Shown piece after piece: positions 1-8,603 of a DNA stretch of 8,603 nt. The position numbers were made by a program, and so were the translations under genes. Each line of letters begins with the position of its first letter. Position 1 is the stretch's first letter. The DNA is from a virus (lineage: Duplodnaviria > Heunggongvirae > Uroviricota > Caudoviricetes): the IMG/VR virus record IMGVR_UViG_2541047905_000009; one strand, 5' to 3'. The notes beneath the pieces are model-generated. The model searched no databases, was not told the origin of the DNA, and worked only from the letters and a program-made list of their open reading frames with translations.

Positions 1-1254
1 ATGCTGGAACAAATGGGCATTGCCGCGAAGCAAGCCTCGTATAAATTAGCGCAACTCTCCAGCCGCGAAAAAAATCGCGTGCTGGAAAAAATCGCCGATG
101 AACTGGAAGCACAAAGCGAAATCATCCTCAACGCTAACGCCCAGGATGTTGCTGACGCGCGAGCCAATGGCCTTAGCGAAGCGATGCTTGACCGTCTGGC
201 ACTGACGCCCGCACGGCTGAAAGGCATTGCCGACGATGTACGTCAGGTGTGCAACCTCGCCGATCCGGTGGGGCAGGTAATCGATGGCGGCGTACTGGAC
301 AGCGGCCTGCGTCTTGAGCGTCGTCGCGTACCGCTGGGGGTTATTGGCGTGATTTATGAAGCGCGCCCGAACGTGACGGTTGATGTCGCTTCGCTGTGCC
401 TGAAAACCGGTAATGCGGTGATCCTGCGCGGTGGCAAAGAAACGTGTCGCACTAACGCTGCAACGGTGGCGGTGATTCAGGACGCCCTGAAATCCTGCGG
501 CTTACCGGCGGGTGCCGTGCAGGCGATTGATAATCCTGACCGTGCGCTGGTCAGTGAAATGCTGCGTATGGATAAATACATCGACATGCTGATCCCGCGT
601 GGTGGCGCTGGTTTGCATAAACTGTGCCGTGAACAGTCGACAATCCCGGTGATCACAGGTGGTATAGGCGTATGCCATATTTACGTTGATGAAAGTGTAG
701 AGATCGCTGAAGCATTAAAAGTGATCGTCAACGCGAAAACTCAGCGTCCGAGCACATGTAATACGGTTGAAACGTTGCTGGTGAATAAAAACATCGCCGA
801 TAGCTTCCTGCCCGCATTAAGCAAACAAATGGCGGAAAGCGGCGTGACATTACACGCAGATGCAGCTGCACTGGCGCAGTTGCAGGCAGGCCCTGCGAAG
901 GTGGTTGCTGTTAAAGCCGAAGAGTATGACGATGAGTTTCTGTCATTAGATTTGAACGTCAAAATCGTCAGCGATCTTGACGATGCCATCGCCCATATTC
1001 GTGAACACGGCACACAACACTCCGATGCGATCCTGACCCGCGATATGCGCAACGCCCAGCGTTTTGTTAACGAAGTGGATTCGTCCGCTGTTTACGTTAA
1101 CGCCTCTACGCGTTTTACCGACGGCGGCCAGTTTGGTCTGGGTGCGGAAGTGGCGGTAAGCACACAAAAACTCCACGCGCGTGGCCCAATGGGGCTGGAA
1201 GCACTGACCACTTACAAGTGGATCGGCATTGGTGATTACACCATTCGTGCGTAA
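1..1254 (+). CDS. proA: gamma-glutamyl phosphate reductase (glutamate-5-semialdehyde dehydrogenase), complete 417 aa
   Basis: The full-length ORF translation is recognised as enterobacterial ProA (aldehyde dehydrogenase fold, proline biosynthesis). It sits immediately upstream of thrW, which is the canonical E. coli gene order. Recognition is from memory, not a database search. Confidence 0.95.
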
Positions 1255-1299
1255 ATAAAACCGGGTGATGCAAAAGTAGCCATTTGATTCACAAGGCCA

Positions 1300-1330
1300 T
1301 TGACGCATCGCCCGGTTAGTTTTAACCTTG
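1300..1330 (+). promoter_or_regulatory. candidate thrW promoter region (TTGACG -35-like hexamer, weak -10, GC-rich discriminator)
   Basis: TTGACG at 1300-1305 lies about 65 nt upstream of the tRNA 5' end; the -10 match is poor. A flanking inverted repeat (1261-1271 / 1305-1315) could also be the proBA terminator. Read by eye only. Confidence 0.25.
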
Positions 1331-1368
1331 CCCACCGTGATTCACGTTCGTGAACATGTCCTTTCAGG

Positions 1369-1444
1369 GCCGATATAGCTCAGTTGGTAGAGCAGCGCAT
1401 TCGTAATGCGAAGGTCGTAGGTTCGACTCCTATTATCGGCACCA
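1369..1444 (+). tRNA. thrW: tRNA-Thr (anticodon CGU), 76 nt with encoded CCA
   Basis: GCCGATATAGCTCAGTTGGTAGAGCAGCGCATTCGTAATGCGAAGGTCGTAGGTTCGACTCCTATTATCGGCACCA has a cloverleaf with GTTCGACTCC T-arm and anticodon loop tTCGTAa. Position after proA matches thrW, a known integration hotspot. Confidence 0.93.
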
Positions 1445-1461
1445 TTCAAACATCTCCCCAA

Positions 1462-1545
1462 GTCTACTAAAGTCTTTCAAAACCCCTTATAATCCGCGTA
1501 TTAAAGCCCCGTTCGTCTTTTGACGTCTACTAAAGTCCCTCAAAA
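1462..1545 (+). repeat. two direct repeats GTCTACTAAAGTC(T/C)(T/C)TCAAAA spaced 63 bp apart (candidate integrase arm-type / attL sites)
   Basis: Identical 13-mer at 1462-1474 and 1525-1537, each followed by a near-identical 8-mer, with a third TCTAC at 1546-1550. Location between the tRNA 3' end and the int start is typical of arm-type sites of tyrosine recombinases. Confidence 0.4.
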
Positions 1546-1609
1546 TCTACGGTCAGATGGGGGTACTTATGGGGGTATTTGCTGTTCGGTTTAGTGGAGG
1601 TACCCCCAA

Positions 1610-2824
1610 GTGAAACTCAATGCCCGTCAAATAGACACAGCCAAGCCAAAAGAGAAGGCTTACAAGCTGGCCGATGGTGGCGGTTTGTATCTCTTGGTAA
1701 AACCTAATGGAGGTAAATACTGGCGACTTAAATATCGTGTAGATGGTAAAGAGAAGCTATTGGCACTAGGTGTGTATCCTGAGGTTACTCTAGCCGATGC
1801 TCGGGCAAAACGTGAAGATGCGAAAAGAGGTATCGCTGGTGGTATCGATCCGATGGAAGCGAAACGAGAGGAAAAGATTGCCCGGGAAACGCAGTTAAAC
1901 AACACCTTCAAAGATATTGCCCTTGAGTGGCACAGCAGCAAATTAAAAAAATGGTCTGCTGGTTATGCTTCAGACATCCTCGAAGCCTTCAACAAAGATG
2001 TGTTCCCTTACATTGGCAAAAAACCAATCGCCGAAATCAAACCACTTGAACTTCTGAATGTGCTGCGGCGCATCGAGGGGCGCGGTGCTACAGAAAAAGC
2101 CAAAAAAGTGAGGCAGCGGTGCGGGGAAGTTTTCCGCTATGCAATAGTCACTGGTCGCGCAGAGTATAACCCTGCACCAGACCTTACTAGCGCGATGCAA
2201 GGCCATGAATCTAATCATTACCCTTTCCTTACAGCTAAAGAATTACCTGATTTTTTCAAGGCATTGTCCAGTTACTCAGGAAGCGCATTGGTTGTTATGG
2301 CGGCTCGTCTACTGATTATCACCGGCTTGCGGACTGGCGAACTACGTGGCGCATTATGGGATGAAATTGATTTCAACAAGGCTATCTGGGAGATACCCGC
2401 TTCACGTATGAAAATGCGGCGGCCTCATATTGTGCCATTGTCTGATCAGGCTCTTTCGCTTATTGGGAAGATTAGAGAAATAACAGGCAATTACCCTCTT
2501 ATGTTTCCCGGGCGCAATGATCCAAGGAAAACAATGAGTGAGGCCAGCATAAACCAAGTGTTTAAGCGCATTGGCTACGCTGGACGTGTAACTGGTCATG
2601 GGTTCCGGCACACTATGAGTACGATTTTGCATGAGCAGGGCTATAACACCGCGTGGATAGAAACGCAGCTCGCTCACGTTGATAAGAACTCAATTCGTGG
2701 CACATACAACCATGCGCAATATCTGGATGGAAGGCGGGAGATGCTTCAATGGTATGCCGACTATATGGATTCTCTCGAGCATGGCGGAAATGTGGTGCAT
2801 ATGGTGTTTGAAAAACACGCATGA
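1610..2824 (+). CDS. int: site-specific tyrosine integrase, P4-type (N-terminal arm-binding DUF4102-like domain plus catalytic domain), 404 aa, GTG start
   Basis: N-terminus (KLADGGGLYLLVKPNGGKYWRLKYRVDGKEKLLALGVYPEVTLADAR) fits the arm-binding domain of P4-family integrases. C-terminus has GHGFRHT and a catalytic Tyr context (IRGTYNHAQY). GGAGG lies 10 nt upstream of the GTG. Adjacent to the tRNA. Confidence 0.9.
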   Translation: MKLNARQIDTAKPKEKAYKLADGGGLYLLVKPNGGKYWRLKYRVDGKEKLLALGVYPEVTLADARAKREDAKRGIAGGIDPMEAKREEKIARETQLNNTFKDIALEWHSSKLKKWSAGYASDILEAFNKDVFPYIGKKPIAEIKPLELLNVLRRIEGRGATEKAKKVRQRCGEVFRYAIVTGRAEYNPAPDLTSAMQGHESNHYPFLTAKELPDFFKALSSYSGSALVVMAARLLIITGLRTGELRGALWDEIDFNKAIWEIPASRMKMRRPHIVPLSDQALSLIGKIREITGNYPLMFPGRNDPRKTMSEASINQVFKRIGYAGRVTGHGFRHTMSTILHEQGYNTAWIETQLAHVDKNSIRGTYNHAQYLDGRREMLQWYADYMDSLEHGGNVVHMVFEKHA

Positions 2825-2910
2825 AACAACTGGACAAGTATACAGAGGTTTACTAAAGTATAGGGGAGTAGATTGATAAAAACTCACAGAGGATTGCTAT
2901 TTAACAGTTA

Positions 2911-2938
2911 GCCCTGGAGAAGGGCAATCGCTCTTTTA
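2911..2938 (+). terminator. weak candidate intrinsic terminator downstream of int
   Basis: Hairpin GCCCT-GGAGA-AGGGC (2911-2925) followed by a T-rich stretch CTCTTTTAT. The stem is short and the T-run is displaced. Confidence 0.25.
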
Positions 2939-2967
2939 TAAACGAAGGTGTATTGAGCCTTCTACGT

Positions 2968-3033
2968 CGCTGACAAAGCGGAATGTTCTTTAACAGGCTT
3001 TGGCGCTGACAAAGCGCAATTGTTCTTTAAAAC
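2968..3033 (+). repeat. two ~28-bp direct repeats (CGCTGACAAAGCG-N3-TGTTCTTTAA) with 36-bp periodicity in the int-alpA intergenic region
   Basis: CGCTGACAAAGCG at 2968-2980 and 3004-3016, each followed by TGTTCTTTAA. Candidate regulator-binding sites or iterons. Confidence 0.5.
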
Positions 3034-3131
3034 TACTGGATGTCACGCCTAATAGCGTGATCCTGCCGAAATGCAGGGTAGCTCTACCCTTGTGGAGCGA
3101 ACAAACCAAAACAATCTGACTATCTTTTATA

Positions 3132-3166
3132 AAAGACCGCAATATGTTTTTCATATTGTGGTCTTT
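3132..3166. promoter_or_regulatory. 35-bp near-perfect palindrome (AAAGACCGCAATATG-TTTTT-CATATTGTGGTCTTT), candidate operator upstream of alpA
   Basis: 15-bp arms with a single mismatch (G-U compatible as RNA). It lies about 90 bp upstream of the alpA start, with a TTGACG hexamer at 3181-3186. Confidence 0.4.
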
Positions 3167-3252
3167 GGCGTATTCGACATTTGACGCAAATAAAACTCTC
3201 GCCATTCGTTGCAGGAGGGGGTTATTGCGTCATTAGTACAGGATATTAATAA

Positions 3253-3456
3253 ATGGCTAATTACAATTCATTAATTCGTCTCTCTGAAGTTCAAAGGCGA
3301 ACTGGTTATAGCAAAGCATGGATTTATCGTCTTATTAGTCAGGGGAGGTTCCCTAAACAGGTAAAAATTGGAAGTCGGGCAATTGCTTTTGTTGAGTCTG
3401 AAATAGATGAATGGATTGAGAAGTGTATATTAGAATCTAGAGACGAGGTGGCCTGA
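3253..3456 (+). CDS. alpA: AlpA/Vis-family phage transcriptional regulator / excisionase-like HTH protein, 67 aa
   Basis: SLIRLSEVQRRTGYSKAWIYRLISQGRFPKQVKIGSRAIAFVESEIDEWIEK matches the AlpA-family HTH pattern. Its position just downstream of a P4-type int is as in CP4-57-like elements. AGGA lies 11 nt upstream of the ATG. Confidence 0.85.
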   Translation: MANYNSLIRLSEVQRRTGYSKAWIYRLISQGRFPKQVKIGSRAIAFVESEIDEWIEKCILESRDEVA

Positions 3457-3887
3457 TGGAAAAGAAAAACCGCCCATTACAGGCGGCTAATTCAGATATT
3501 CGTGTATCTGATGTTACGCCCCTTACAAAATCCCTTCAAGCACCAAAGCGCACACCGAAAAAGCATCGTGCCAGAGTCTATATGCTGCGTACTGGTATAG
3601 AGGGATGGACAGAAAATGACATTCTTCGCTACTGCCGTCTGTCTTCTGGTCGTAACTATGCAACAGAGTTAGAACGCCAGCTTGGAATCACTCTGGAGCG
3701 TATCGACGAAAAGAATCCTGATGGTATCGGAACACACCTTCGCTACCGTTTCTCCTGCCGTGGTGATGTTCTGAAAGTGATCACTCATATTAACCATCTT
3801 GCGAACATAAATGATCACAACGGACTTTCTCAGCAGGAAATTGCCGACATTCTGAAACTCTACCCGGACGCGTTTAACGCCGCCTAA
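3456..3887 (+). CDS. hypothetical protein, 143 aa, basic N-terminus (possible DNA-binding)
   Basis: ORF whose start overlaps the alpA stop (TGATG), indicating translational coupling. K/R-rich N-terminal 40 residues. No family recognised. Confidence 0.65.
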   Translation: MEKKNRPLQAANSDIRVSDVTPLTKSLQAPKRTPKKHRARVYMLRTGIEGWTENDILRYCRLSSGRNYATELERQLGITLERIDEKNPDGIGTHLRYRFSCRGDVLKVITHINHLANINDHNGLSQQEIADILKLYPDAFNAA

Positions 3888-3899
3888 CGGAGACTGAAA

Positions 3900-4733
3900 A
3901 TGAACATCGAAAAAAGCAGATTAATTTCTGAGGCCGCCCCTCATCTGAACGCCTCTCTGGGCACAATTAACGGTAATGAATTTGCCGCAATTGTCCCGGT
4001 TATTCCAGGTCACATCGGTGGGCGTGAAACCAATATTGTTAGCGCAAAAGCGTTACACAAAGCGTTGGGCGTGGGAAAAGACTTCTCTACATGGATCACT
4101 GATCGCATCTCTGAATATGACTTCACCATTGGGCACGATTACTCAGTCCATAAAACAATTTCCCCAAATTTGGGGAAAAGCCCGAATGGCACGGCTTACA
4201 GCAAGATTAAGCAGTCTGGCAGACCCGGCAAAGACTATCTGTTAAGTGTCGGAATGGCGAAAGAGCTGGCAATGATCGAACGCAATGATCAGGGTCGCGC
4301 TATCCGTCGTTATTTCATCCAGTGCGAGGAAGAATTACAGCGTAGCGTGCCTGAAATCGCCGCCCGCTATCGTCGCCAGCTAAAAGCCCGTATCAGTGCC
4401 GCAAACAACTTTAAGCCAATGTGCGATGCGCTGAATATGGCCCGTGCCGAGCAGGGGAAAACGACGCAGCAACACCACTACACAAACGAGAGCAATATGA
4501 TTTCTCGTATCGTTCTTGGAGGGCTAACTGCTAAGCAGTGGGCGCGGATAAATGGCTATTCTGGCGAACCTCGCGACCATATGAACGCAGAACAGCTTGA
4601 GCACCTCTCATATCTCGAAAGCACCAATATCACGTTAATTGATATGGGCATGGAATATGAGCAGCGCAAAGGAGAACTCACCCGCCTGTCGCAACGCTGG
4701 CTCGCCAAGCGTCTGGAGGCGGTCCATGTTTAA
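3900..4733 (+). CDS. phage antirepressor-like protein (AntA/ORF6N-type N-terminal domain), 277 aa
   Basis: N-terminal region (IGGRETNIVSAKALHKALGVGKDFSTWITDRISEYDF ... KDYLLSVGMAKELAMIERNDQGRAIRRYFIQCEEE) matches the characteristic AntA/Bro-N-type antirepressor signature ending in RRYFIxCE. C-terminal half unassigned. GGAGA lies 8 nt upstream of the ATG. Confidence 0.8.
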   Translation: MNIEKSRLISEAAPHLNASLGTINGNEFAAIVPVIPGHIGGRETNIVSAKALHKALGVGKDFSTWITDRISEYDFTIGHDYSVHKTISPNLGKSPNGTAYSKIKQSGRPGKDYLLSVGMAKELAMIERNDQGRAIRRYFIQCEEELQRSVPEIAARYRRQLKARISAANNFKPMCDALNMARAEQGKTTQQHHYTNESNMISRIVLGGLTAKQWARINGYSGEPRDHMNAEQLEHLSYLESTNITLIDMGMEYEQRKGELTRLSQRWLAKRLEAVHV

Positions 4734-4908
4734 GCCGACAGGAACACCACAACCTCAAAAACGCTACAAAGATGCCCACGGAGCACTCGTTACTGTCGAA
4801 AGCGTGTCTCACAACCGAGTGACGTTTTATCGCGACGGGTATCAATCGCCATGCGTACAACCGCTGGCGCGCTTCATGAAGGAGTTCGCGGAGGTTAACA
4901 AATGCTAA
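4726..4908 (+). CDS. small hypothetical protein, 60 aa ([60 protein letters not shown])
   Basis: ATG at 4726 is preceded by GGAGG (4715-4719) and overlaps the upstream stop (ATGTTTAA). The longer 4639 start in the ORF track lacks an RBS and gives an implausible N-terminus. Confidence 0.6.
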   Translation: MFKPTGTPQPQKRYKDAHGALVTVESVSHNRVTFYRDGYQSPCVQPLARFMKEFAEVNKC

Positions 4909-5930
4909 CCGTCCAGAAGAAGATATTTTCACTGACTGCTATGTCGCAAAAATCCAGCAATATGACAGCAAAGTCTGGCATTAATACAGCAGATACAAGC
5001 AAAGCTTATCATTTTATGGTGGTAGGAGCGGATGCCTTAACTATGTCAGAAATTACGGTCGATGGTGTTAGCGTTGAGAAGGTCAGCGGCTGCGCCAGAG
5101 AATTTCTGGTCGTAGATGACCTGTTCTGCTCGCGTAGTGACTCCACAAAAATCTTCGTCCGCACGCGCGACGTTAACGAAATGAGCGCGATGTACTGTGC
5201 CTCTGGTTCTTCCAATAGTGAGTTTTCGGAGTCCATAAAAAAGAGCTTGCCGTTATGCGGCAACACGGTTTATGGTTATAAGGCACCTCATAAAACGGGT
5301 GCCGGGATTAGGACCCCGCAGGCAATCGAGGCGATACATGACGCGCCAGCGTCTTTTTTTGTATCGGCGCACACGCACACCTTATCAATGGTGGGCTGTA
5401 TGGGGCTGACTTCGGTCAGGCTGGTTTCCTTGATTGCCAGTAGTCCTAACCCTGTACAGTCCACCGCCAGCGAGCTTAGGACCTCCGGCGGTGGCTATAA
5501 ACCATCAATCAAGGAGGCTGCCACATGCTGGCTACTACCCCTACCCAAAAACCGCAATTTATCTGGATTATCGCCGCAGTTCGCCGCGATTGCCCGACAA
5601 TTACCGCCAAAATTCATCATATTGCTGCCGAGTCTGAACGCGATGCTCGCCGTTCTCTGGTGCGCGATCACATCTGCTTTTTTGCTGGTCGTATCCGCAT
5701 GGAGGTGGCACATGATTAAAACCTACGATGTGCATATGGATCCCCTCGAACGCACAAGCCAGATCATCACACTGACAGAAGTGATTAACGACATTCTGGT
5801 GAGCAACTCTCCCTCACGAGACGAAAGACTGAAGGCGTTACTCGCGATATTGGATCTCGCCGTTCGTGACGTTCATTTCCTGCTGGAAGGTGGACAAATG
5901 CCATGCAAAACGGGGGCAACCAATGAATAA
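4902..5930 (+). CDS. uncertain: 342-codon open frame with strong RBS; 5' half plausibly coding, 3' extent unresolved (reads through other RBS-supported genes)
   Basis: ATG at 4902 has GGAGG 7 nt upstream and overlaps the previous stop (ATGCTAA). The frame has no stop until 5930, yet across 5525-5711 it is rich in rare CUA codons while another frame codes well. It contains a terminator-like hairpin. Coding status is ambiguous. Confidence 0.35.
5340..5360 (+). terminator. candidate intrinsic terminator / attenuator (GACGC-GCCA-GCGTC followed by T7)
   Basis: 5-bp GC-rich stem with a 4-nt loop, followed immediately by TTTTTTT (5354-5360), inside the long open frame and about 165 nt upstream of the next RBS. 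Confidence 0.4.
5406..5514 (+). ncRNA. candidate structured RNA / regulatory leader (UUCG-tetraloop hairpin, crossing stems, long-range stem overlapping the SD)
   Basis: Complementary segments read by eye: CTGAC-UUCG-GTCAG (5406-5419); GTCCTAA (5443-5449) with TTAGGAC (5476-5482); CCACCGCC (5461-5468) with GGCGGTGG (5487-5494), crossing the previous pair; CCTTGATTG (5428-5436) with CAATCAAGG (5506-5514), reaching into AAGGAGG. No folding energy was computed. Confidence 0.3.
5525..5719 (+). CDS. small protein, 64 aa, tentatively Icd-like (host cell-division inhibitor family of P4-like elements)
   Basis: Strong SD AAGGAGG 7 nt upstream of the ATG. Codon usage is good in this frame. [21 protein letters not shown]...[13 protein letters not shown] resembles, from memory, the FxW-FAAVRR...FAGR pattern of Icd-like proteins; this family call is low confidence. 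Confidence 0.55.
   Translation: MLATTPTQKPQFIWIIAAVRRDCPTITAKIHHIAAESERDARRSLVRDHICFFAGRIRMEVAHD
5712..5930 (+). CDS. small hypothetical protein, 72 aa (alternative reading: C-terminal part of the 4902 open frame)
   Basis: ATG at 5712 is preceded by GGAGG (5701-5705) and overlaps the stop of the 5525 gene (ATGATTAA). Translation [30 protein letters not shown]... is protein-like. Confidence 0.45.
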   Translation: MIKTYDVHMDPLERTSQIITLTEVINDILVSNSPSRDERLKALLAILDLAVRDVHFLLEGGQMPCKTGATNE

Positions 5931-6117
5931 CTCAATTAATACCCCTCGCCTTACGTCCGCACTTCAATTAATCGAGCAAGCAGCGGCTGTCCTGGTTGCT
6001 GTCAGTCTTTCGGCTGAAGAAATGGACGCTGCTGATGTCGTGGATGCGATTAAAGCGTGCTCATCTTTGGTTAACGATGCCCGTGCCGAGCTGGTAATTC
6101 TTGGGGGTGAAAAATGA
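5923..6117 (+). CDS. small hypothetical acidic protein, 64 aa
   Basis: ATG at 5923 overlaps the upstream stop (ATGAATAA), with a G-rich stretch upstream. The GTG at 5866 in the ORF track lacks an RBS. Confidence 0.55.
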   Translation: MNNSINTPRLTSALQLIEQAAAVLVAVSLSAEEMDAADVVDAIKACSSLVNDARAELVILGGEK

Positions 6118-6377
6118 ATATCAACTTAATTTATCGTCATCCGTGTGAGCTGGAAATTGAATCATTGCTGGGGCGCGAAGAGCCATATCCAGACACATTC
6201 ACTCCCGCAGATTGCGCGACTGAACGGCTTACCAGAGCGCGCACAGGTCTGGTTCATGTGATGAATGAGATTGTTCCCTCGGTGGGAGGGGAACAGGCGA
6301 CAGTAATCAATAGCTGGCTACAAAAAGTTACCTCCCTGATAGATATCGGTTTAATCGATGTGGAGAGTGCGAAATGA
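6114..6377 (+). CDS. small hypothetical protein, 87 aa
   Basis: ATG overlaps the upstream stop (ATGA), with GGGGGTG upstream. Translationally coupled. Confidence 0.6.
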   Translation: MNINLIYRHPCELEIESLLGREEPYPDTFTPADCATERLTRARTGLVHVMNEIVPSVGGEQATVINSWLQKVTSLIDIGLIDVESAK

Positions 6378-6595
6378 CCAACATCCAGCTCATTGAAGCG
6401 CAATGTCGCATCGAACAGGTTCAGACTGTTTTAGGGTTCTGGCTTGAAGGGGCCAGCCCCAGCAACAGAGACAAGTTAATGATTGGCGCGGTTATGTCAC
6501 TGCTCAATGGCGTACCAGAAGCTATTCAGGAAGCGGACGAATTGTTGGGCAAATATGAGTTACAGAATCATTCAGGCGAGGCGAAACATGAATAA
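6374..6595 (+). CDS. small hypothetical protein, 73 aa
   Basis: ATG overlaps the upstream stop (ATGA), with GGAGAG 6 nt upstream. Confidence 0.6.
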   Translation: MTNIQLIEAQCRIEQVQTVLGFWLEGASPSNRDKLMIGAVMSLLNGVPEAIQEADELLGKYELQNHSGEAKHE

Positions 6596-7190
6596 TTTCT
6601 TAACTTTCCATGCAGAAGCAACGCCTGACGGCGTAAACATCATGTACCGCAGCAACGATGGCATGACAGAACGCGTTGAGACCGTCTCATATATTGATGC
6701 CGTAAATCGTCTGGATGCCGGGGATTATGACGATAAACCAGATGAAGGCATGTTTATACATCTCGCTATTGCCAGTGGCGGCAACCAGGGATATTTCGAT
6801 TACACATCACAGCATCACGTGATTATGTGGCGCTGGCTGATAGCAACAGCATTCATCAATGAAATGAGAAAGGAAAACGGCACTGTCAGCATCATTGATG
6901 ATACTGGCAATCCTTCCGAAGTGGCTGTTTATTCCAACGGCATCGTCGCCATGCCGCTGTATCCAGTAGCAGAGCGCCTCGCTATGGCAAACAACATTGA
7001 GGGCGCGATGATAGAACGTTTTGGCATCGAGTCTGGCACAGAACGCGCCATCATTTTCTACAGAGCCATGATGGATGTGGAACAAGGAGCACTGACTCCA
7101 TTTGGTCGTGAAACGCTTGCTGAACTTCACAACAGCTTTATAGCTGAACTGAATGAAAACGGCATGCCAGCGGAACCAGTGACGCACTGA
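6588..7190 (+). CDS. hypothetical protein, 200 aa
   Basis: ATG at 6588 overlaps the upstream stop (ATGAATAA). The 6483 start in the ORF track would overlap the preceding gene by about 110 nt and gives a junk N-terminus. Protein-like composition. Confidence 0.65.
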   Translation: MNNFLTFHAEATPDGVNIMYRSNDGMTERVETVSYIDAVNRLDAGDYDDKPDEGMFIHLAIASGGNQGYFDYTSQHHVIMWRWLIATAFINEMRKENGTVSIIDDTGNPSEVAVYSNGIVAMPLYPVAERLAMANNIEGAMIERFGIESGTERAIIFYRAMMDVEQGALTPFGRETLAELHNSFIAELNENGMPAEPVTH

Positions 7191-7200
7191 GGATGGAGCC

Positions 7201-7542
7201 ATGATTACTAAAAATTTCCGACTGAATGCGCTGGCAAATAAGTATGCGTCAGCACTGTATAACCACATTACCTCCACCAGCGGCGGGGACTATTTCATGA
7301 TTGATGCGGACGGAGAGGCCGTCCGTGTGGAAATCGTCAATGGAGTAAAAGGCGTTCGCAGCCTGATCGATAGTTACGCACTGGCAGCCATGAAAGTGTT
7401 CTACCCGCAGTGGGAAACCGTGGGGATCGAGCTTCTTGATCGTTGCGTCACTAAGGACAGATTGACTGACGTCGGGCGTGAGATATGGCAAAGCATGGTT
7501 AATGACATGGGCGCAACTGTAGCGGGAGGTTCTCATGCGTGA
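7201..7542 (+). CDS. hypothetical protein, 113 aa
   Basis: GAGGA 6 nt upstream of the ATG; 10 nt after the upstream stop. Confidence 0.65.
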   Translation: MITKNFRLNALANKYASALYNHITSTSGGDYFMIDADGEAVRVEIVNGVKGVRSLIDSYALAAMKVFYPQWETVGIELLDRCVTKDRLTDVGREIWQSMVNDMGATVAGGSHA

Positions 7543-7906
7543 AAATGTAGAAATGGCGCTTAGCTCCGCAATCGGAGAGCAGGTGGCAAAGATTGCTGGT
7601 GCTGTGTGGATTCATAACCTTCATTCTACTGGTGAAGAGAAAATGGCAATTCAGACGCCAGAGGGACGCACCATTACTACATCTCTGAAGCCGTCAGATG
7701 TTTGTGATCTGATTTGCGCATTCATGTACCCAGCAATGAGGACTGTCCACGGCGATAAGTGGAAACTTGCGACAACCGCTGAATTTGATATGTGGCTAAA
7801 CAATGATGGCATGCTGACTGATTACGGAATAACCAAGTGGCAGATGCTAGTTAGCCATATCGCAAACGCTATAGACCACGTGGGGTACGGTGATGCGAAA
7901 CATTGA
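7535..7906 (+). CDS. hypothetical protein, 123 aa
   Basis: GGGAGG 5 nt upstream of the ATG; start overlaps the upstream gene by 8 nt. Confidence 0.65.
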   Translation: MRENVEMALSSAIGEQVAKIAGAVWIHNLHSTGEEKMAIQTPEGRTITTSLKPSDVCDLICAFMYPAMRTVHGDKWKLATTAEFDMWLNNDGMLTDYGITKWQMLVSHIANAIDHVGYGDAKH

Positions 7907-8384
7907 TCTTATCCGTCAGGTTATCAGTGCGTCTGAAAACAACTGGCCTCATGTGCTGGGCTGCCTGAACATAAATGTCCCTGACTCTCCGCGCCGTCAT
8001 GCTCCCTGCCCTGCATGTGGGGGCAAAGATCGATTCCGGTTCGATGACAACGGGCGCGGTAGCTTCATCTGTAATCAGTGCGGCGCTGGTGATGGGCTGG
8101 ATTTAATTAAACGCGTAAATAACTGCGACACAACAGAGGCGGCGCTTCTTGCCGCTGATGTTCTGGGTATTGATTACCGGACAACGGAAACACCAGAAGC
8201 CACCAGCCAGAAACGGGAACAACTGGAAACCGAGCGCCAGCGACGCGAACAGGAGCGCCTGAAAAGGGCAGAGAAGGACGAACAACAAAGACGGGATACG
8301 TTTTCCCGTCAGTTTGATGACATGCGCAGAAAGGCTGTAAACGGCAAATCTGATTATCTGGTTGCGAAAGGGGTAGGTGATTGA
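7893..8384 (+). pseudogene. DNA primase (P4 alpha / primase-helicase type), N-terminal zinc-ribbon fragment truncated by IS insertion
   Basis: CPACGGKDRFRFDDNGRGSFICNQCGAGDGLDLIKR is the CxxC...CxxC primase zinc-ribbon motif. The ORF ends after 163 residues (ATG 7893) at a TGA that is the first three bases of the IS terminal repeat (8382-8384). Full-length homologues are several hundred residues. Confidence 0.8.
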
Positions 8385-8603
8385 ACCGCCCCGGGTTTCC
8401 TGGAGAGTATTTTATCTGTGAACTCAGGCTGCCAGATCATCGTTTCCGATGGAAGCATAATAAGCTTTTTCTGCTTCTGCCGGAGGAGTATGGCCCAGCC
8501 TTTCCAGCAATCGTCGATTGTTATACCAGTCCACCCACGTGAGTGTGGCCAGTTCCACTTCTGCACGGTTTTTCCAGCTCTTACGGTGTATTACCTCCGC
8601 TTT
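8382..8603 (-). mobile_element. IS3-family insertion sequence, IS629-like, terminal part (partial; runs off window end)
   Basis: Terminus TGAACCGCCCCGGGTTTCCTGGAGAG recalled as the IS629/IS3411 terminal inverted repeat. An IS3-family transposase C-terminus is encoded on the - strand just inside. Confidence 0.8.
8424..8603 (-). CDS. IS3-family transposase OrfB, C-terminal 59 codons (partial, 5' end beyond window)
   Basis: Reverse-complement translation in frame with the window end: ...KAEVIHRKSWKNRAEVELATLTWVDWYNNRRLLERLGHTPPAEAEKAYYASIGNDDLAA*. This is the typical C-terminal tail of an rve-domain IS3-family transposase. The track ORF at 8354..8566 is in a different frame and is not the real gene. 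Confidence 0.8.
   Translation of the reverse strand, partial: KAEVIHRKSWKNRAEVELATLTWVDWYNNRRLLERLGHTPPAEAEKAYYASIGNDDLAA

Follow-up and report, generated by a model that had tools for sequence, protein, structure and literature searches.

Here we analyse a train of five very small genes found in an 8,603-nucleotide stretch of DNA (hereafter the window), which is held in the viral record IMGVR_UViG_2541047905_000009 of IMG/VR and assigned there to Caudoviricetes. Judged from its sequence, the window is an EcCIMP1-type phage-inducible chromosomal island (PICI) inserted at tRNA-Thr, a known Escherichia coli satellite. A preliminary description, made from the letters of the window, had placed the five genes at 5525, 5712, 5923, 6114 and 6374, with a next one at 6588, and had considered them as part of a phage or satellite early operon; the open reading frames (ORFs) were found at exactly these positions, and the satellite origin agrees with the identity of the island. 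What had been overlooked are the genes of two RNAs (isrK-like and C4), a 342-aa ORF superimposed on them, and the identity of gene 1 with the Kil protein of satellite P4. With all these features taken together, we put a probability of about 70% on the five tiny genes being the promoter-proximal part of a P4-type early ('left') operon of the island, gated by the C4 RNA. The features of the central region, in which genes 2 to 5 are called o2 to o5, are as follows.

4902-5930, plus strand: 342-aa read-through ORF, 'ash family protein' of the PGAP annotation; its start overlaps the stop of the DUF4222 gene
5247-5276, plus strand: putative constitutive promoter, a sequence match to P4 PLE
5283-5359, plus strand: isrK-like leader, Rfam match; equivalent to P4 seqA and to the a1-b1 target region of P1
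5384-5471, plus strand: C4/CI-type antisense immunity RNA, Rfam RF01695
5476-5517, plus strand: downstream C4 targets a2 (5476-5483) and b2 (5506-5517)
5525-5719, plus strand: gene 1, Icd-like (icd), 64 aa, first translated gene after C4
5712-5930, plus strand: gene 2 (o2), 72 aa, with its own ATG and Shine-Dalgarno sequence inside the icd stop region
5923-6117, plus strand: gene 3 (o3), 64 aa
6114-6377, plus strand: gene 4 (o4), 87 aa
6374-6595, plus strand: gene 5 (o5), 73 aa, phrog_20558

The junctions of the train, including the one that leads into the next gene (o6), read ATGATTAA, ATGAATAA, ATGA, ATGA and ATGAATAA, which corresponds to overlaps of 8, 8, 4, 4 and 8 nt, respectively. At every start a match to the Shine-Dalgarno sequence is present, with anti-Shine-Dalgarno duplex energies from -6.8 to -11.4 kcal/mol. 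Three of the genes begin with MN(N/I), as had been noticed before, because the ATGAAT(AA) overlap itself encodes these residues. The coupled chain is longer than previously described and extends from alpA (3253) to the primase gene (7893); nine of its 11 junctions are overlaps of 1-14 nt, the remaining two being gaps of 10 and 12 nt. Junctions are likewise tight in three diverged lineages of related islands, designated here L020, L024 and L025/L027, where neighbouring genes overlap by 1-17 nt or are 9-13 nt apart. Phage operons often have such start-stop overlaps, and the pattern seen in the train is therefore typical of the genre and not anomalous.

Lack of conservation in related islands had been named in the preliminary description as a finding that would speak against these ORFs. 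They proved to be conserved: an intact copy of the block 5712-6595 was found in 486-490 of 5426 complete E. coli genomes, always with at least 95% identity, and all ORFs are intact in 18-20 of the 20 loci examined. Word-indexed searches returned mostly close relatives of this kind, and the diverged islands were recovered by genomic-context look-ups. In the latter, each of o2-o5 has homologs of similar length which are 32-52% identical, and differences are concentrated at third codon positions, with the proportion of nonsynonymous differences (pN) well below that of synonymous ones (pS), least clearly in the case of o3. The pN/pS comparison refers to the diverged islands, as polymorphism within E. 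coli is too sparse for a firm value. Such a pattern shows that the genes of the train are under protein-level selection, with o3 as the weakest case, and indicates that the small ORFs are translated genes and not noise.

The diverged islands differ in the order and combination of the families. L020 has Icd, o4 (52% identity), o5 (43%), an o6 paralog, o6 (61%) and primase. L025/L027 carry isrK, C4, Icd (71%), o2 (39%), o3 (40% in L025), o5 (42%), an o6-like gene and primase. The longest set is found in L024, where isrK, C4, Icd (42%), o2 (33%), an ORF6N protein, a 64-aa gene and o5 (37%) are followed by a 59-aa gene, o4 (40%), o6 (32%), o7 (52%), a 73-aa gene and primase. Homologs of o5 are thus present in all three lineages, at 37-43% identity. 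Since the o2-o5 families are shuffled both in order and in combination, they behave as modules. A common origin of the four genes was considered and rejected: Smith-Waterman comparison with shuffled sequences gave z of at most 1.9, and hhalign of the family profiles gave probabilities of 0.5-2.8%. By these sequence comparisons o2-o5 appear to be four unrelated families with no detectable mutual relation.

The same data bear on the idea that the small ORFs are a translational relay and nothing else, i.e. that they keep Rho off the message and feed ribosomes to the primase gene with their peptides being functionless. In its favor, junction overlaps are kept even where the gene content differs. 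In phage P1, translation of a leader ORF permits expression of the gene downstream. Gifsy-1 offers a further example of such dependence (PMC4825925). Families whose motifs and length persist although identity has fallen to 32-52%, whose pN is much lower than pS, and which recur in different orders are, however, not what one expects from pure spacer, and a relay of this type seems to us very unlikely.

The first gene of the train can be named with confidence. The preliminary description had tentatively called it Icd-like; the resemblance stands, while the reservation can be dropped, as the protein matches NCBIfam NF033153 (Icd-like) with E = 9.8e-20 and 70 bits against a cut-off of 25. It is also 41% identical to P4 Kil (E = 1.6e-8). 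By sequence, gene 1 is a homolog of P4 Kil and a member of the Icd family. Expression of P1 Icd inhibits cell division. By analogy, the product of gene 1 may be a toxic or division-inhibiting peptide of the Kil/Icd type, and P4 Kil has been described as a translated product which functions in cell killing (PMC10111431).

Upstream of gene 1 two RNA genes were identified. The C4 RNA matches its Rfam profile over the full length with 80.2 bits (gathering score 45), and the isrK-like RNA reaches 63 bits, also above the gathering score; the isrK-like leader has an intrinsic terminator at 5340-5360. The hairpin loop b' of C4 (5425-5436) and its linker a' (5440-5452) are complementary to the leader sites a1 (5304-5314) and b1 (5322-5331), and also to the downstream sites a2 and b2, which correspond to seqC. 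The last part of b2 is, in all five immunity types, the Shine-Dalgarno sequence of gene 1.

For comparison of the immunity cassettes 20 related loci (L001-L019 and L028) were used. The segment 5283-5524, comprising isrK, C4 and the spacer, is hypervariable, with 60-100% identity versus at least 97% in the flanks; beyond 'GGAGGCTGCCACATG' on the downstream side all types are nearly identical. Five specificity types (T1-T5) were distinguished, in each of which the C4 loops have changed in concert with the targets on both sides. T1 and T2 have the same b and different a, whereas T4 and T5 have the same a and different b. Predicted duplex energies follow this division, as cognate loop-target pairs are the most stable ones in all four 5x5 matrices; for b2, cognate duplexes have -17 to -21 kcal/mol versus -7 to -16 kcal/mol for pairs of different specificity. 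The RNA gene, the targets on both its sides and their covariation together point to a C4/CI antisense-RNA module of the P1 immI / P4 type. EcCIMP1 of strain MP1 is of type T3 and the window of type T1, and the two are therefore predicted to be heteroimmune.

Two further elements of this region can be proposed. A promoter-like site at 5247-5276 (-35 TTGCCG, 18-nt spacer, -10 TATGGT) aligns, as a sequence match, with TTGCCT / TATAGT of P4. The stretch 5500-5620, which includes the ribosome-binding site and the initial third of icd, is C-rich and G-poor (C/G ratio of 1.5-2.3), a composition compatible with a Rho utilisation site.

Determinants of the same kind were seen also outside the islands. 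In the Stx2a phage Stx2_EC3283 the a', a1, a2 and b2 elements are identical to those of the window, with one nucleotide differing in b' and one in b1; a 261-aa ORF lies there directly 3' of C4, and in related Stx-phage and E. coli records the gene after C4 is annotated as a Rha-family regulator. The P1-like phage 673R5 and island type T2 have a common a' element. Shared determinants of this sort predict possible RNA-level cross-immunity between satellites and prophages, the toxin-converting ones included.

The 342-aa ORF runs through isrK, C4 and icd, the last one being read in another frame, and its C-terminus is o2. From isrK to the ATG of o2 the o2 frame is free of stops over 429-468 nt in seven types or lineages (the five immunity types, L024 and L025), whereas each of the two remaining frames has 2-8 stops in the same stretch; shuffling gave P = 0.001-0.0035 per sequence for an open frame. 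Depending on the immunity type the long ORF has 342 or 355 aa, a net difference of 39 nt which equals 13 codons and preserves the frame. In a full HMMER search at least seven clusters of 50% identity align continuously from about aa 110 to aa 334. Synonymous sites have diverged less in icd (pS of 0.41-0.60) than in o2, o4 and o5 (0.77-0.85), which is expected of a dual coding region.

It could be argued on these grounds that the region encodes a single 342-aa 'Ash family' protein, with icd and o2 not being separate genes, or else that it is untranslated RNA. The frame is indeed conserved, and PGAP annotates the long ORF in most genomes, fusing two RNA genes, the out-of-frame icd and o2. The Pfam Phage_ASH match, however, covers aa 124-219 of the ORF, which is exactly the extent of the isrK and C4 RNA genes. 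The icd frame matches both NF033153 and Kil, whose translation and killing activity in P4 have been described (PMC10111431); o2 has its own Shine-Dalgarno site, and HMMER finds stand-alone o2 homologs of 68-76 aa which all start at the same Met. Other RefSeq genomes annotate an Icd-like and a 72-aa protein instead. A single fused gene or an untranslated region is, in our opinion, extremely unlikely. By analogy we propose that the long ORF is a counterpart of P4 eta in a variant arrangement, with a start linked to the upstream genes and a frame that reads through the CI region.

Two observations on individual genomes should be added. The genomes of MP1 and of strain 83972 have no annotation for o2. 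In one viral-contig copy (L009) icd stops early, at 40 aa, no ATG is present at the expected o2 start and the long ORF is shortened to 288 aa; either the gate gene has been knocked out naturally here or the sequence contains an error.

The remaining genes of the train gave few clues to their function. The preliminary description had found no recognisable domain in them, which agrees with the absence of any Pfam or NCBIfam match for each of the o2-o5 proteins and for the o2 family profile. It had also proposed HMM searches and structure prediction: these yielded the Icd-like assignment of gene 1 and a helical o4, and no function for o2-o5. Matches in PHROG were obtained for o5 (phrog_20558), o6 (phrog_1515) and o7 (phrog_37628), all of them families of unknown function. 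PADLOC returned sub-threshold noise (E > 0.007), a result which does not extend to anti-defence families as these were not separately searched, and sequence and profile searches of the small proteins against PDB gave nothing credible. Weak domain matches far below the cut-offs (TY-Chap1, E = 0.005; CARF, E = 0.008; PTPS, DrmMII and PglZ) were disregarded, and the SAKe6BE match to o4 was dismissed as spurious, having no passing stretch. The predicted structure of o4 (pLDDT 83) is a long antiparallel helical hairpin, for which Foldseek found no match with E of 0.001 or lower in PDB and BFVD (best about 0.3 and 1.1), only generic folds. The o5 model (pLDDT 68) is helical at low confidence and was left out of the fold search. 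In direct scans o4 gave near-identical copies among viral contigs, o6 one close relative among genome contigs, and o5 no tblastn match among phage genomes; a literature search with the RefSeq protein accessions found no paper. Some copies of o4 are named 'nicotinic acetylcholine receptor subunit beta' in RefSeq and UniRef, an evident case of propagated annotation error.

What the products do can be approached from position and company. The preliminary description had suggested that such arrays encode small effectors, and o2-o5 may indeed act on the helper phage or the host, whether in helper derepression, superinfection exclusion, anti-defence or host takeover. In P4 the slot after Kil, with the same 8-nt overlap, is filled by epsilon, the helper-derepression protein; since epsilon stands at the position of o2, the analogy with helper manipulation is legitimate. 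The families are modular, divergent and shuffled between islands, the modelled helical hairpin of o4 is a fold common in protein-binding modules, and EcCIMP1 gives superinfection immunity against its helper Kapi1, and none of the known defence systems was detected in the island (PMC11773190). Yet neither sequence nor profile nor fold searches of o2-o5 provided a match which would support a host-takeover, anti-defence or helper-directed role: PADLOC, Pfam and PDB contributed nothing significant, the sole PHROG match (o5) is to a family of unknown function, and blastp against P4 epsilon, orf151 and cnr gave no match better than E = 0.07. We regard the effector reading as possible, with some hesitation. 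It concerns the products and is compatible with the regulatory model.

A role closer to the island itself is suggested by the location of the small genes, always between the immunity module and the primase gene. In P4 cnr lies just upstream of alpha in the same operon, and the window, L020 and L024 all combine o4, o5 and o6 with the TOPRIM/DUF927 primase, so that o4-o6, and perhaps o2 and o3, could be accessory replication factors such as copy-number regulators, primase partners like Cnr or origin-associated proteins. Several facts speak against this proposal. The same o2-o6 block precedes two replicase types (DUF5906 or TOPRIM+DUF927), the primase is constant among islands that differ in the order and content of their genes, temperate phages have relatives of o6 in their early left operons, beside xis/int and without a primase in the vicinity, and the Pfam search of the small genes revealed neither a Cnr (DUF5375) nor a DNA-binding signature. 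A replication role is unlikely, and it and the pure relay are the less likely options.

The identity of the element rests on comparison with EcCIMP1 of E. coli MP1, a PICI located in tRNA-Thr between proA and yagU with the att core TCCTATTATC (Pick, Stadel & Raivio 2025, PMC11773190). Positions 608-8382 of the window are 97-98% identical to it at the nucleotide level and all proteins are 90-100% identical; the AlpA proteins are 100% identical, and icd and o2-o8, thus every protein of the train, are 91-100% identical to their MP1 counterparts. The same att core is found at 1428-1437 of the window, inside tRNA-Thr, the right end of the island falls outside the window, and the gene order of the MP1 locus from int to primase (int, alpA, antirepressor, Ash/Icd region, small genes, primase) is that of the window. 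The features flanking the central region are listed below.

1-1254: proA
1369-1444, plus strand: tRNA-Thr(CGT), integration site, holds the EcCIMP1 att core
1610-2824, plus strand: tyrosine integrase of the island
3253-3456, plus strand: AlpA-family regulator, first gene of the coupled chain
3456-3887, plus strand: 143-aa protein, 1-nt overlap with the alpA stop
3900-4733, plus strand: AntA/AntB antirepressor-domain protein
4726-4908, plus strand: DUF4222 protein, 8-nt overlap with the antA stop
6588-7190, plus strand: o6, 200 aa, phrog_1515
7201-7542, plus strand: o7, 113 aa, phrog_37628
7535-7906, plus strand: o8, 123 aa, paralog of o7
7893-8384, plus strand: P4-alpha-like primase, N-terminal 163 codons (Zn-ribbon), cut by an insertion sequence (IS)
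8385-8603, minus strand: end of an IS3-family element which interrupts the primase gene

The helper-dependent excision, replication and transfer of EcCIMP1 have been demonstrated: the island is induced and transduced by phage Kapi1 and needs AlpA, its master activator (PMC11773190). The region of interest is labelled there 'Ash family protein' and hypothetical proteins, and the small genes are uncharacterised; the words 'Icd' and 'ejection' do not occur in the text, which was not searched for C4 or isrK. In intact islands the primase has TOPRIM and DUF927 domains. Genes o7 and o8 are tandem paralogs (Smith-Waterman z = 6.3) and are missing from the variants L001 and L018, in which a replicase gene follows directly after o6.

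Several loci show unusual configurations. In L002 (NZ_CP119120.1) the train, from icd on, follows a truncated terminase gpA gene in a lambdoid prophage, with homology starting within C4, which looks like a helper-embedded or recombinant configuration. L018 (NZ_CP148430.1, 1-12152) is a 12,152-bp circular 'plasmid' record of an EcCIMP1-like element with AlpA, AntA, the train, an intact primase, PerC and a different integrase, and could represent the element in an excised or episomal state, or else an artefact of assembly. In L019, L025, L027 and L028 homologs of P22-type ejection proteins (DUF2824, Inj_translocase and a gp16-like lytic transglycosylase) are located 3' of the primase gene, a cargo that is unusual for a satellite and fits a P22-like helper (Kapi1). 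A 71-aa ORF on the minus strand at 2990-3205, between int and alpA, may be EcCIMP1_002, a small gene examined for UvrB-like function (PMC11773190). The Rfam 'int-alpA RNA' was found 3' of int, before the next gene, in the diverged islands L024 (3165-3231) and L025 (3445-3513), and was not detected in the window at E of 1 or lower.

From the anatomy of the locus, the complementarity and covariation of C4 with its targets, the homology of gene 1 to Kil, the conservation of the small ORFs and the open long frame, the following mechanism can be put together. The putative constitutive promoter would transcribe the isrK-like leader and the C4/CI antisense RNA. Mature C4 would pair through b' and a' with a1/b1 of the leader and with a2/b2 downstream, and when bound to b2 it would block the Shine-Dalgarno sequence of gene 1 and keep ribosomes out of the train. 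Because each gene starts on or inside the stop codon of the previous one, the whole message as far as the primase gene would stay untranslated, and it would then presumably be terminated by Rho, as in P4. With the gate open, translation would be relayed from icd through o2, o3, o4, o5 and o6 to the primase. The 342-aa ORF would offer a second entry on the upstream transcript driven by AlpA, insensitive to immunity and linked by tight junctions back to alpA, like P4 eta expressed from the late promoter. The products of the operon would be a Kil/Icd-type peptide and four unrelated, modular families of small proteins, the latter most likely acting by binding other proteins, be it of the helper, of the host or the island primase.

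Some points weigh against this model. Repression, Rho termination, coupling in vivo and translation of the read-through ORF are carried over from P4, P1 and Gifsy-1. The terminator of isrK sits between the putative promoter and C4, so that C4 of this immunity type has to rely on read-through; other types have a 39-nt insert with a TATAAT box, whereas the type of the window is without it. L020 has an Icd-o4-o5-o6-primase train and gave no Rfam match to C4 or isrK at E of 0.1 or lower, which means that the train can exist under other control. Unlike in P4, the long ORF is out of frame with the Kil/Icd gene and has o2 as its in-frame end, hence the analogy with eta/kil is not exact, and conservation of the 'Ash' frame could partly stem from constraints on the RNA genes. 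No search result identifies targets of o2-o5. Finally, as the primase gene is cut by the IS element, this particular copy of the island is probably not functional as a replicon.

The analysis provides a concrete, testable model for a satellite family that about 9% of complete E. coli genomes carry, and from the five immunity types it can be predicted which islands would be heteroimmune. The o2-o5 families, now supplied with alignments and diverged homologs, are candidates for the source of the so far unexplained superinfection immunity of EcCIMP1, and the determinants shared with the Stx2a phage suggest a possible RNA cross-talk between satellites and toxin prophages. A bolder synthesis, in which o2-o5 are new helper- or host-directed families with one of them behind the superinfection immunity, expression has two entries and the gate is possibly cross-wired to prophages, we find doubtful as a whole. 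On the practical side an annotation problem becomes apparent, as PGAP often merges the RNA genes, icd and o2, o2 is sometimes left unannotated and o4 is misnamed in some genomes.

Among known systems, the immI region of P1/P7 (c4, icd, ant1/2) resembles the locus in the a' and b' elements of C4, in the targets a1/b1 and a2/b2, and in specificity types which differ by covariation of loops and targets. In P1, as in the window, b2 covers the ribosome-binding site of icd, whose end overlaps with the beginning of the following gene. The window differs from P1/P7 in having four small genes and a replication module downstream, not an antirepressor, and its AntA gene is located upstream. Similarity to isrK-orf45-anrP of Gifsy-1 consists in an isrK RNA with its own terminator followed by a small ORF; there, experiments have shown that transcription passes the isrK terminator into the small ORF and that the next gene depends, by coupling, on translation of this ORF. 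That next gene encodes an antirepressor in Gifsy-1, where short IsrK RNA is an activator in trans (PMC4825925).

The closest likeness is to the left operon of P4, composed of vis, seqA, CI RNA, kil/eta, epsilon, orf151, cnr and alpha. Both elements have, in the same order, an AlpA-like gene, isrK, C4/CI, Kil/Icd, small genes with 8-nt overlaps and a Zn-ribbon primase, and in both a long ORF, joined by start-stop links to the upstream genes, passes through the RNA region. On the minus strand of P4, Rfam places isrK at 8692-8615 and C4 at 8507-8420; the old 'cI ORF' has at its C-terminus a domain of the Icd-like family (NF033153, E = 8e-21), followed by epsilon, orf151, cnr and alpha, and the Kil/epsilon and epsilon/orf151 junctions are 8-nt overlaps. 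Kil of P4 is a truncated Eta, full-length Eta being made only from the upstream late promoter in coupling to the alpA homolog, and translation of Eta prevents termination (PMC10111431). In contrast to P4, where eta shares the frame of Kil, the long ORF of the window shares that of o2, and its small genes behind the Kil homolog have no detectable similarity to epsilon, orf151 or cnr. The window has AntA, DUF4222 and the 143-aa gene between alpA and the RNA module, and intact islands are annotated without sid, delta and psu and carry P22-like ejection-protein genes instead.

Gram-negative and helper-embedded PICIs with immunity RNAs in a 'Bro zone' share the zone order Integration, Bro, Replication, Late with the window, and the C4 and isrK profiles of Rfam match several Gram-negative PICIs inside Bro/Ash-type ORFs; the small-gene train, the specificity types and the out-of-frame arrangement are not described there (PMC10111431). 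With EcCIMP1 the window has in common the integration site at tRNA-Thr next to proA, the att core and the order from int to primase, and it differs by its predicted C4 immunity type (T1 versus T3 in the MP1 copy) and by the IS3-family element in its primase gene. The train of tiny genes is thus a real and correctly observed feature, a known kind of operon in a known element, with two local variants: the long ORF shares its frame with o2 instead of Kil, and there are five immunity types.

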